NCBI GenBank assembly: GCA_964617525.1
Contig: CAZTWG010000040.1
Coordinates: 1 to 5,924 of the forward strand
From: an uncultured Gammaproteobacteria bacterium
GTDB lineage: Bacteria > Patescibacteriota > Patescibacteriia > UBA2591 > UBA6264
Reading direction: 5' to 3'
DNA length: 5,924 bases
The position numbers were made by a program, and so were the translations under genes. The notes below the pieces were generated by a model, which did not search any database, was not told the DNA's origin, and worked only from the letters and a program-made list of their open reading frames with translations. Positions 1,840-5,924 of the stretch are shown piece after piece (positions within the stretch are counted from its first letter, which is position 1; each line of letters begins with the position of its first letter).

Positions 1840-2493
1840 ATGAACATAGCATCTACTCAAAAATATTTAGATATTACTGAAATAAAAAATGATTGCATAG
1901 TTTTAAAAGACGGTAGCTTAAGGGCAATTTTACTTGCTTCGTCTATTAACTTTGCCCTTAAATCTGAAGATGAACAAAAGGCCGTTATTCAGTCTTATGC
2001 TCGTTTTTTAAATACACTAGGATTTCCTTTGCAAATTGTTATTCATTCTAGACCATTTAATATTGACCCATATGTTAATGAATTAAACGTTTTGCGACAA
2101 AATCAAACAAATGAGCTTCTTAGAAATCAAACTACAGATTATCGTGATTTTATTAAAGAGTTAATAGATTTAGGAGAGATAATGAGTCGTCGTTTTTATA
2201 TTGTTGTTCGCTATAATCCGCTTGGCGACAAAAAGAAAGGATTTTTATCTAAGATTTCAGACATATTAAGTGCAGCCATTGTAGTAAAAATCAAAAGAGA
2301 AAAATTTGATGCTTGTAGAGAAATGCTTTTCAAGAGAGTTGATAACATTACTTCTGGGCTTTCCTCTATGGGGATTAAGACTAGTCCCTTGGATACCCAA
2401 AGTTTAATTGAATTGTTTTATAATATATATAATCCTGCTGAAGCTAAAAATCAAAAATTAATAGATTTAGAAAAATTAAGAATAGAACAATAA
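1840..2493 (+). CDS. VirB4-family N-terminal domain encoded as a separate 217-aa ORF (split VirB4, part 1).
   Basis: The N-terminal stretch (KYLDITEIKNDCIVLKDGSLRAILLASSINFALKSEDEQKAVIQSYARFLNTLGFPLQIVIHS) matches the opening of monoderm VirB4 homologues as I recall them: a 'dg-i-tkdG-y-..-v-.iNf-L-s-eEq-..i-..f-.fLn-l...iq' pattern in the Tn916 Orf16 / CD1110-type N-termini. It ends at TAA 2491-2493, one base before the ATG of the ATPase ORF. The start is well defined, because an in-frame stop at 1822-1824 leaves ATG 1840 as the first start. Confidence 0.65.
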   Translation: MNIASTQKYLDITEIKNDCIVLKDGSLRAILLASSINFALKSEDEQKAVIQSYARFLNTLGFPLQIVIHSRPFNIDPYVNELNVLRQNQTNELLRNQTTDYRDFIKELIDLGEIMSRRFYIVVRYNPLGDKKKGFLSKISDILSAAIVVKIKREKFDACREMLFKRVDNITSGLSSMGIKTSPLDTQSLIELFYNIYNPAEAKNQKLIDLEKLRIEQ

Positions 2494-2494
2494 T

Positions 2495-4378
2495 ATGTCT
2501 ATAACTCCAGAGAGTTTAATCAAAAAAGAAAAAATTAAAGAAAAGAGAGTGGCTTCTTTGTCAGATAAAAAAGCTCAGGAATTTATTAATACTGAGGAAA
2601 AATATCGACGTGGTCGTTTCAAGGTCCAAGACCTAATTGCTCCCTCAGCTTTAAGAGTAACTCCTCAATATCTTCAACTAGGTGGTAGATATTTGAGGAC
2701 GATTTTTGTGGTAGGGTTTCCAAGATATATTTCTGTCGGTTGGTTTATGCCAGTTATTAACTTTAATGCTTATTTAGACGTAGCTATGTTTTTTTACCCA
2801 GTTAAGGCAAGTGTTGTTCTCAAACAATTACAGAATCGTGTTGGCAATCTTCAGGCAGAGATGAGCATTGCTCAGGAGAAGGGTTTACCTCGAGATCCTT
2901 TAAAGGATACGGCACTTAATGATATCGAGCAATTAAGGGATAGCTTAACTACTGGTGTTGAACAATTTTTCCAATTTGGTTTGTATATAACAGTTTACGC
3001 GAAAGATGAAAAAGGATTAGATTTATTGACTGAAAAAATAGAAAGCCTTCTAGCCTCAAAGTTAATTTACAGCCGAAGAGTCTTTTATCAATCAGAACAA
3101 GGGTTCAATTCTACACTTCCCTTATCTAACGATCGGTTAATGGTCTTAAACAACATCAATTCTTCTCCTTGCGCCTCTAGTTTTCCTTTCATATCTGCTG
3201 ATTTAACTTCAGACAATGGCGTTCTTTACGGGATTAACAGACATAATAATAGTTTGATTCTTTTTGACCGTTTTTCTATGCCTAACGCTAATTTTGTTGT
3301 ATTTGCTACCTCTGGGGCTGGTAAATCGTATTTTTGTAAATTGGAAGTTTTAAGGTCTATGATGTTCGGTACAGATGTAATTATAATTGATCCAGAGCGA
3401 GAATACGAACATCTTTCAGATGCTGTAGGCGGAACCTATGTTAATATTTCCCTTTCTTCTAAAAGCAAAATTAACCCATTTGATTTGCCAAGGTCAGAGA
3501 ATAAGGACATTAGTGCGGCTGATGTGATTCGCACTAGTGTTATTACTGTTAAAGGACTTCTGAGAATTATGATTGGACAAGAGAATAGAGGAGGTGTTAA
3601 AAGTTTTACTTCTCAAGAAGATTCTATAATTGACAGAGCTTTAATTGAAACTTACGCAAAGAAAGACATTGTGCCTGGGTGTGACTTAAGTAGAGTAGAT
3701 GTCCCTACCATGAGTGATTTGCAGGAAATATTAGAAGGCATGGAGGGAGGAAATGACCTAGCGGAAAGATTAAAAAAATATACTGAAGGCACTTTTGCTG
3801 GCTTCCTTAATTATCCTACTAATATAGAAATGGATAACCAGTTAGTTACTTTTTCTGTTAGAGATATTGAGGACGAGTTAAGACCAATGGCTATTTATAC
3901 TATTGTGAATTATATTTGGAATGTAGTTCGGGCAAAGCTAAAGAAAAGAATTTTGTTAATCGATGAAGCTTGGTGGTTGATGCAACATGAGGATTCAGCT
4001 AAATTTATTTTTGCTTTAGTCAAGCGTTGTCGAAAATATTATTTAGGCGTTACCACGATCACTCAAGATGTTAATGATTTTTTGGAATCGTCTTATGGCC
4101 GAGCTATTGTGACTAATTCGGCGCTACAATTACTTTTAAAGCAATCTCCTGCAGCTATTGATGGAGTAGCTAAGACCTTTATGCTTACAGAGGGTGAAAG
4201 GTATTTATTGTTGGAATGTGGGATTGGGGATGGAATATTCTTCGCTGGCTCTAAGCATGCGGCTATTAAGATAGTTGCTTCCTACTCCGAAGACCAATTA
4301 ATAACATCGGACCCTAAGCAATTATTAGAGATTAATGAAGCTAAAAGGGAGTTTGCCAAACAGTACAAAACAAAATAA
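2495..4378 (+). CDS. virB4: VirB4/TrsE/ConE-family T4SS ATPase (middle domain plus C-terminal ATPase domain; split VirB4, part 2).
   Basis: 627 aa. Walker A ATSGAGKS is encoded at 3305-3328 and Walker B ILLIDEAW at 3950-3973, followed by GVTTITQDVNDF (sensor-like TQ motif). The pre-ATPase region DLIAPSALRV..YLQLGGRYLRTIFVVGFPRYISVGWFMPVINF..LDVAMFFYPV and the YGIN..N.LILFDRF..PNANFVVFATSGAGKS context are typical of VirB4-family proteins. The C-terminal GIGDGIFFAGSKHAAIKIVASYSE..LITSDP is also typical. Confidence 0.9.
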   Translation: MSITPESLIKKEKIKEKRVASLSDKKAQEFINTEEKYRRGRFKVQDLIAPSALRVTPQYLQLGGRYLRTIFVVGFPRYISVGWFMPVINFNAYLDVAMFFYPVKASVVLKQLQNRVGNLQAEMSIAQEKGLPRDPLKDTALNDIEQLRDSLTTGVEQFFQFGLYITVYAKDEKGLDLLTEKIESLLASKLIYSRRVFYQSEQGFNSTLPLSNDRLMVLNNINSSPCASSFPFISADLTSDNGVLYGINRHNNSLILFDRFSMPNANFVVFATSGAGKSYFCKLEVLRSMMFGTDVIIIDPEREYEHLSDAVGGTYVNISLSSKSKINPFDLPRSENKDISAADVIRTSVITVKGLLRIMIGQENRGGVKSFTSQEDSIIDRALIETYAKKDIVPGCDLSRVDVPTMSDLQEILEGMEGGNDLAERLKKYTEGTFAGFLNYPTNIEMDNQLVTFSVRDIEDELRPMAIYTIVNYIWNVVRAKLKKRILLIDEAWWLMQHEDSAKFIFALVKRCRKYYLGVTTITQDVNDFLESSYGRAIVTNSALQLLLKQSPAAIDGVAKTFMLTEGERYLLLECGIGDGIFFAGSKHAAIKIVASYSEDQLITSDPKQLLEINEAKREFAKQYKTK

Positions 4379-5577: not shown

Positions 5578-5924
5578 ATGATTAATAGAAATAAAAAATT
5601 TTTGCTTATTTTCTGCTTATTCTTTCTGTTTGCCAACTTTTCTTTGGTTATGGCTAAAGATGTCATGTTCAAGCCACAGATAGAAATTCCAGAAGAACAA
5701 ATTGATGGTGTCAATATTAAGCCAGGGCAAGAGATTCAGATTAAGGGTAGGTCGTTTATTGACTATATGATGGCGATTTACAAATGGTCTGTGGGCGCTA
5801 TTGCAATTATTGCTGTAATTATGATTATGGTAGCTGGTTTCCAGTGGATGACTGCGGCTGGTAATGCCTCTACGATTGGACAAGCTAAGTCTCGTATTAG
5901 TTCTTCTTTGATTGGTTTACTTTT
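5578..5924 (+). CDS. VirB2/TrbC-like T4SS pilin precursor, 3'-truncated by the window end and absent from the supplied ORF track.
   Basis: ATG at 5578, 4 nt after the previous stop, with the frame open to the window end. My translation is MINRNKKFLLIFCLFFLFANFSLVMAKDVMFKPQIEIPEEQIDGVNIKPGQEIQIKGRSFIDYMMAIYKWSVGAIAIIAVIMIMVAGFQWMTAAGNASTIGQAKSRISSSLIGLL... It has a classic signal peptide (basic n-region, hydrophobic core, VMA|KD cleavage-type site). A TM helix (AIAIIAVIMIMVAGFQW) follows, then a short loop T-AAGN-..-AK and the start of a second hydrophobic helix. That is the VirB2/TrbC topology, and it matches the '..G...t.aGn......AK..i...l.Gl' motif I associate with the T4SS pilin family common in Patescibacteria. 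Confidence 0.7.
   Translation, partial: MINRNKKFLLIFCLFFLFANFSLVMAKDVMFKPQIEIPEEQIDGVNIKPGQEIQIKGRSFIDYMMAIYKWSVGAIAIIAVIMIMVAGFQWMTAAGNASTIGQAKSRISSSLIGLL

Follow-up and report, generated by a model that had tools for sequence, protein, structure and literature searches.

In Patescibacteria (the candidate phyla radiation, CPR), the most common component of type IV secretion systems (T4SSs) is TrsD, with 2272 homologues (Quinonero-Coronel et al. 2025, PMC12102498). TrsD is remotely homologous to the N-terminal portion of VirB4, is associated with VirB4 in 1664 of these 2272 homologues, and usually adjoins virB4 (PMC12102498). Outside Patescibacteria, it occurs only in the pGO1 subclass of MPF_FATA; it lacks an assigned function, and in Ca. 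Southlakia epibionticum it is essential (PMC12102498). The homology to VirB4 is credited to Guglielmini 2014 (PMC4027160), but the statement is taken here from PMC12102498. Here, we describe a 5,924-nucleotide (nt) stretch of contig CAZTWG010000040.1 (GCA_964617525.1, forward strand), called the window below, in which VirB4 is distributed over two abutting open reading frames, ORF1 and ORF2. The window is part of a Patescibacteria T4SS locus with the order prgI(virB3-like)-trsD-virB4-...-pilin.

The published Patescibacteria loci (PMC12102498), including the Southlakia T4SS (Wang et al. 2023, PMC10633639), which is essential for the epibiotic lifestyle, contain the same gene pair, with a PrgI/VirB3-like gene 5' of it and a VirB2-like pilin gene nearby. 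Nothing substantive sets the window apart from them. It is one more instance, and the homologues of ORF1 bear Patescibacteria names. A preliminary description of this DNA had presented the split as new, but the TrsD-VirB4 pair was already published for Patescibacteria (PMC12102498). That study does not state explicitly that the adjacent VirB4 misses the matching segment, and the fused forms of a Berkelbacteria-type lineage are not described there. The additions made here are the explicit complementarity of TrsD and VirB4, a breakpoint in a predicted disordered linker, and the fused Berkelbacteria-type lineage.

The layout of TrsD followed by a shortened VirB4 is known not only from Patescibacteria but also from staphylococcal and enterococcal conjugative plasmids, and TrsD/TraD genes are found in 425 plasmid records. 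In the pSK41/pGO1 and pIP501-type systems (MPF_FATA, pGO1 subclass), a VirB3-like gene is followed by a TrsD/TraD gene of about 210 to 230 codons and a VirB4 gene of about 650 to 670 codons. Plasmid pSK41 encodes TrsC (135 amino acids [aa]), TrsD (227 aa), and TrsE (672 aa) in this order, and pRE25, which carries a pIP501-type tra region, encodes TraC (127 aa), TraD (209 aa), and TraE (653 aa). The corresponding proteins of the window have 141, 217, and 627 aa. The breakpoint between ORF1 and ORF2 equals that between pSK41 TrsD and TrsE within about 10 residues, and pRE25 TraE starts at about position 274-294 of fused VirB4 profiles. However, the sequence identity is only about 24 to 25%. In addition, the pSK41/pIP501-type plasmids are conjugative and carry a relaxase and a coupling protein, whereas the Patescibacteria loci mostly lack a relaxase according to the literature.

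Full-length monoderm VirB4 proteins (the CD1110 family, such as an 866-aa Clostridium sporogenes protein) and R388 TrwK are single polypeptides, whereas the window encodes two. The preliminary description had taken monoderm VirB4, with pIP501 TraE among the examples, to be one chain of about 800 aa. VirB4 proteins of the CD1110/Tn916/pCF10 type are such chains, but those of the pGO1/pSK41/pIP501 class are not; the pairs TraD/TraE of pRE25 and TrsD/TrsE of pSK41 belong to the latter. In crenarchaea, the Ced DNA-import system likewise spreads a complete VirB4-like N-terminal domain over two proteins (PMC11868833). Its CedB and CedD proteins are paralogues, both with an ATPase domain, and the N-terminal domain of each corresponds to a different part of the VirB4 N-domain. 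Of the pair in the window, by contrast, ORF2 alone carries an ATPase domain, and ORF1 consists of nothing but the N-terminal module. CedB/CedD is an independent precedent for a two-protein VirB4-like N-terminal domain.

Complementarity of ORF1 and ORF2

The features of the window are listed in Table 1; the coordinates of both ORFs, their TAAtATG junction, and the TAG at 2483-2485 were confirmed from the sequence.

Table 1. Features of the 5,924-nt window (positions from its first nucleotide)
Feature	Position	Strand	Evidence
PrgI/VirB3-like small membrane protein, 141 aa	1309..1734	+	PF12666 PrgI, 28.4 bits (cutoff 27)
ORF1, TrsD-like, detached VirB4 N-terminal module, PF26593 'TraC-like', 217 aa	1840..2493	+	NCBIfam, BLASTP, AlphaFold2/Foldseek
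Junction TAA-T-ATG, 1-nt spacer	2491..2497	+	Read from sequence
ORF2, VirB4-type ATPase, 627 aa, without first ~170 positions of fused VirB4 profile	2495..4378	+	NCBIfam, Pfam, PDB
Walker A, S273-G-A-G-K-S278 of ORF2	3311..3328	+	Sequence; within AAA_10/DUF87 match
Walker B-type, I486-L-L-I-D-E491 of ORF2	3950..3967	+	Sequence; within P-loop_TraG match
Partial T4SS pilin gene, VirB2-like	5578..5924	+	PF18895 T4SS_pilin, E 8.3e-7, 29.4 bits (cutoff 26.6)

ORF1 is a detached VirB4 N-terminal module that corresponds to approximately the first 170 to 220 residues of a full-length monoderm VirB4. Among the NCBIfam profiles, it covers positions 103-236 of the mycoplasma VirB4 profile VirB4_plasma (894 positions; E value of 3e-10) and positions 2-105 of the conju_CD1110 VirB4 profile (752 positions; E value of 3e-7). 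In BLASTP alignments, residues 10-198 match residues 66-227 of the fused 866-aa C. sporogenes plasmid VirB4 (E value of 4e-12), and residues 18-198 match residues 46-216 of pSK41 TrsD (E value of 1e-9). ORF1 also matches the TrsD/TraD family NF041427 (35.4 bits; E value of 8.9e-9; profile positions 23-163 of 201); on sequence grounds, it is a homologue of this family and a nonmember by the NCBI threshold. With its length of 217 aa, and with its gene preceded by a VirB3-like gene and followed by a virB4 that is shortened N-terminally, ORF1 conforms to a TrsD/TraD-type protein. A precomputed PF26593.2 match is present on P0001, a protein 100% identical to ORF1, and on all 120 homologues listed. 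A local Pfam scan of ORF1 gave subthreshold matches only (TraC_F_IV, 16.6 bits), and PF26593 was not returned by that copy of Pfam.

Since a sequence search of the PDB revealed no relative of ORF1, a fold search was used. A calcineurin chain with an E value of 0.0012 in the sequence search consisted of two stretches of about 10 bits and was taken as a chance match. The AlphaFold2 model of ORF1, built on 84 homologues, has a predicted local distance difference test (pLDDT) score of 80.6 and a predicted template modeling (pTM) score of 0.70. When this model was compared to the PDB with Foldseek, the top 14 matches were all R388 TrwK/VirB4 chains (E values of 3.5e-4 to 9.6e-3; probability of 1.00; TMq of 0.45 to 0.55), and the matches below them had probabilities of <0.2. 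Foldseek gave no aligned TrwK range, and the N-terminal placement of ORF1 within TrwK is taken from the profile coordinates. Both the profile matches and the fold thus support the earlier proposal that the 217-aa ORF resembles a VirB4 N-domain.

In ORF2, the entire ATPase domain follows the second part of the N-terminal domain of VirB4. It matches NF045971 (conju_CD1110) above the curated cutoff (328.4 versus 325 bits; E value of 9.3e-98) at positions 170-730 of 752 and VirB4_plasma at positions 268-892 of 894. Residues 49-593 align with residues 283-853 of the fused C. sporogenes VirB4 (BLASTP; E value of 4e-52), and residues 46-602 align with residues 36-626 of pSK41 TrsE (E value of 9e-44). 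Pfam matches include P-loop_TraG (residues 429-573), AAA_10, and DUF87, whereas CagE_TrbE_VirB on residues 137-210 (E value of 0.0028; 18.1 bits) stays under its 21-bit cutoff. Residues 238-604 match PDB entry 4AG5, the C-terminal ATPase domain of Thermoanaerobacter VirB4 (E value of 7.3e-42). The ORF2 polypeptide does not contain a complete N-terminal domain; the absent segment is encoded by ORF1. In agreement with the preliminary description, the two ORFs are collinear and nonoverlapping on full-length VirB4 (positions 2-105 and 170-730 of CD1110; positions 103-236 and 268-892 of VirB4_plasma). Together they cover a full-length monoderm VirB4, with ORF1 folded like TrwK and an ATPase domain like those of 4AG5 and TrwK.

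The junction and the stability of the split

Database searches revealed 5846 homologues of ORF1. The best 120, with identities of 100% to 56%, are all stand-alone proteins of 215 to 235 aa. Where named, they come mostly from Patescibacteria or Parcubacteria, one is labelled as a Thermoplasmata archaeon, and several are termed 'TraC family protein' by NCBI. Among 1.84 billion cluster representatives (50% clustering), a profile search picked out 3643 relatives of ORF1, and 149 of the best 150 are stand-alone. In a scan of species-representative genomes, 575 relatives were found, of which the best 80 loci were analyzed. Among these 80 are Falkow-, Buchanan-, Uhr-, Kerfeld-, and Veblenbacteria, Saccharimonadales, and Gracilibacteria; 78 of the 80 have enough downstream DNA. 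In all 78, a stop codon (TAA in 63, TAG in 9, and TGA in 6) closes the ORF1 homologue, and the ORF2 homologue follows as a separate gene. A PrgI homologue lies 5' of the ORF1 homologue in 79 of the 80 loci, and the synteny of prgI, trsD, and virB4 is likewise kept in 79 of 80. When compared to the 91%-identical relative L005, the ratio of nonsynonymous to synonymous substitution rates (dN/dS) equals 0.043 for ORF1 and 0.041 for ORF2, at a dS of about 1. Both ORFs are real genes under strong purifying selection, and the split is a stable, genuine two-gene VirB4, one of the options considered in the preliminary description.

At the junction, the stop codon TAA (2491-2493) and the ATG (2495-2497) are separated by a single T (2494). 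The TAG at 2483-2485 closes the ORF2 frame upstream and leaves the ATG at 2495 as its earliest possible start; three close relatives (L005, L009, and L013) align from ORF2 residue 1. The related loci keep the split, but the TAAtATG junction itself is not kept. Spacers in the 78 loci range from -8 to 511 nt with a median of 9 nt (41 of 1 to 10 nt, 15 of 11 to 30 nt, 9 of 31 to 100 nt, 12 of >100 nt, and 1 overlapping), and a 1-nt spacer also occurs in L013, L064, and L068. Frame offsets of 0, 1, and 2 between the two genes are found in 24, 30, and 24 loci, respectively. Given this spread of spacers and the even frame offsets, TAAtATG is not a conserved feature but an ordinary tight operon junction; the remaining operon junctions are likewise tight (4, 19, and 21 nt). 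Termination-reinitiation coupling at TAAtATG is possible in that it is compatible with a 1-nt spacer, although it is not conserved and would be at most a local trait; no gene of the window has a Shine-Dalgarno motif. The break lies in a poorly conserved, disordered interdomain linker, as indicated by the low pLDDT of the C-terminal tail of ORF1 (mean of 63 at residues 201-210 and 46 at 211-217), the poor conservation of the first ~45 residues of ORF2, and the low pLDDT of the linker in natural fusions.

Three rival explanations of the split were weighed. A recent frameshift pseudogenisation of a once-continuous virB4 would account for two ORFs that lie in different frames only 1 nt apart, and fused versions do exist in another Patescibacteria lineage. 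However, the split recurs in 78 of 78 related loci across many candidate phyla, with varied spacers and all three frame relations. Both parts evolve at a dN/dS of 0.04, stand-alone TrsD homologues number in the thousands, and ORF2 has its own conserved start. An assembly or sequencing indel in this contig could be suspected from the A/T-rich stretch around the junction. Yet the 100% identical ORF1 protein is present on 4 contigs from four independent sources, and the independent assemblies of the relatives have their own stops, of all three kinds. Moreover, a single indel would fuse the ORFs cleanly only within a 9-nt slot, as the TAG at 2483-2485 blocks the ORF2 frame. The conservation of the split in all 78 loci together with the strong purifying selection excludes pseudogenisation and assembly error, two options of the preliminary description, for all practical purposes; we regard either as barely conceivable. 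A programmed +1 frameshift or stop read-through that adds a fused VirB4 beside the two parts would suit an offset of only 1 nt, and in natural fusions the two parts do tolerate a covalent link. The sole slot for such an event, 2486-2494, to which the preliminary description had confined any fusion, reads AACAATAAT in the ORF2 frame and has no recognizable slippery site; its P-site codon CAA would be unable to re-pair in the +1 frame, judging from the sequence. Furthermore, neither a shared recoding motif nor a conserved slippery site is present at the junction across the 78 loci, the frame relation among the relatives is random, and spacers reach hundreds of nucleotides. Recoding is hence highly improbable.

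Natural fusions and proposed reassembly of the two parts

TrsD and VirB4 also occur as a single chain. Approximately 68 protein clusters of 860 to 910 aa combine PF26593 and VirB4 domains in one protein, and one fused gene lies directly 3' of prgI. In a Berkelbacteria-type lineage, TrsD and VirB4 form one chain of ~860 to 910 aa (L086, 469-3165, and L087, 3029-5749 [CP066695.1]). The two parts are joined by a P/A-rich, disordered linker of ~100 aa with a pLDDT of <50. In the fusion P0263, this linker spans residues 219-324, residues 13-223 are 38% identical to ORF1, and residues 323-890 are 49% identical to ORF2. The AlphaFold model of P0263 aligns with TrwK from end to end (E value of 1.8e-28; about 940 columns). 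Together, these split and fused forms provide a natural pair in which the docking of the N-terminal module of VirB4 to VirB3/PrgI could be examined for monoderm systems.

One candidate split form, P0336 (582 aa, 83% identical to the fused proteins), proved to be an internal-ATG miscall of a continuous 906-aa ORF, and an interconversion of split and fused forms among very close relatives was therefore dropped. The 582-aa NCBI gene call in CP066695.1 leaves about 950 nt without annotation. On the Planococcus maritimus plasmid NZ_CP101821.1 (L001, 1181-2215), an annotated 'TrsD' of 344 aa starts with two hydrophobic helices that weakly match PrgI (E value of 0.024), followed by a TrsD-like part; this protein may be a VirB3-TrsD fusion.

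In solved systems, VirB3 wraps the membrane-proximal surface of VirB4. ORF1 and ORF2 are, in our judgment, probably an operon pair whose separately translated products reassemble noncovalently into a complete VirB4 subunit. TrsD and the shortened VirB4 would be translated separately from one operon, and the membrane-proximal part of the N-terminal domain, in contact with PrgI/VirB3, would come from TrsD. TrsD would dock on both VirB4 and PrgI, with a 1:1 stoichiometry between the parts, and their translation might be coupled at TAAtATG. Reassembly is suggested by the conserved prgI-trsD-virB4 order, the natural fusions, and the weakly PrgI-like segment of the Planococcus 'TrsD'. A scan for promoters and terminators across prgI, ORF1, and ORF2 revealed no terminator and no convincing promoter between the genes, and nothing in it speaks against a single operon.

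Several observations weigh against this reassembly. The complexes of TrsD with VirB4 and with PrgI are inferred rather than directly observed. The P0263 model has a pTM score of 0.48 and a TM score of 0.51 to TrwK, values that support collinearity only, not a geometry of TrsD docking. Tight linkage is not universal, since the TrsD homologues of Gracilibacteria mostly do not adjoin virB4 (PMC12102498), and the spacers of >100 nt in 12 of the 78 relatives argue against translational coupling. As for family membership, ORF1 does not reach the curated NF041427 cutoff of 200 bits, which pRE25 TraD likewise misses (104.7 bits; E value of 5e-30), and an hhalign comparison of the ORF1 profile with pRE25 TraD is weak (probability of 2.6%). 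The link between ORF1 and pIP501-type TraD is based on the match of both to NF041427 and on synteny, not on hhalign.

Under the main rival explanation, TrsD would be an independent, diverged protein with an accessory or regulatory role; it would descend from an N-terminal fragment of VirB4 without completing the N-terminal domain of VirB4. This would fit the frequent separation of trsD from virB4 in Gracilibacteria (PMC12102498), the long disordered N- or C-terminal extensions of many homologues, and a docking that is not confidently predicted. However, ORF2 misses exactly the segment that ORF1 supplies, the breakpoint coincides with that of pSK41 TrsD/TrsE, a whole lineage has both parts, in their ancestral order, on a single chain, and the synteny of the triplet is almost invariable among the 80 loci. 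We therefore consider an accessory role unlikely. Among the homologues with extensions, P0138, P0167, P0267, P0142, and P0265 from Patescibacteria carry N- or C-terminal additions of 90 to 220 aa that abound in Q, P, A, and T, are of low complexity, and have no Pfam match. An interpretation of the N-terminal extensions as PrgI fusions was rejected; they are Q/P/A-rich low-complexity tails.

With the VirB3-binding N-terminal module of VirB4 on a separate polypeptide, the cell could build VirB4 subunits of two kinds, one containing TrsD and one lacking it, or could dock the motor to the membrane channel in a regulated and reversible way. This proposal is speculative, and we consider it quite unlikely. 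By analogy, two kinds of subunit would match the 'central' (VirB3-bound) and 'outside' (VirB8-bound) VirB4 copies of the R388 hexamer of dimers. If true, the split would be adaptive for function and not just a neutral fission of the gene, and a different behavior would be expected of the fused Berkelbacteria forms.

Neighboring genes and further observations

The prgI gene heads the conserved prgI-trsD-virB4 triplet, and its product reaches the PF12666 gathering score. The partial pilin gene at its end places the window in a Patescibacteria T4SS locus and agrees with published work, in which VirB2-like pilins are present in such loci. Upstream of prgI, a 404-aa ORF (34-1248) reached no family; its best match, DDR_swiveling (23 bits), is below the cutoff. 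This ORF contains a repetitive lysine/glutamate-rich segment, KKIEKIEKIKKDKKI.

In one relative of the locus, L007 (JALLOP010000003.1, Patescibacteria group bacterium AH-259-L07; 5601-7600), an in-frame intein of ~666 aa interrupts the VirB4 homologue (Intein_splicing, E value of 1.8e-20; LAGLIDADG_3, E value of 4.9e-19). The intein lies in the Walker A loop (GSGK / S...VHN / SFFAKLEV, with its borders marked by slashes), at a site equal to K277/S278 of ORF2 in the window.

No recognizable Shine-Dalgarno motif precedes the gene starts of the window at 1309, 1840, 2495, 4398, 4983, and 5578, and their leaders are A/T-rich. Read from the sequence, these two features suggest Shine-Dalgarno-independent initiation in the source organism.

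The 105-nt intergenic region between prgI and trsD (1735-1839) contains six of the eight ACGAAT/ATTCGT hexamers in the window. They are arranged as direct repeats with a spacing of 22 nt; ACGAAT lies on the upstream side and its complement, ATTCGT, on the downstream side. The closest relative, L005, retains six copies, and none occur in more distant loci. The array may be a lineage-specific operator.

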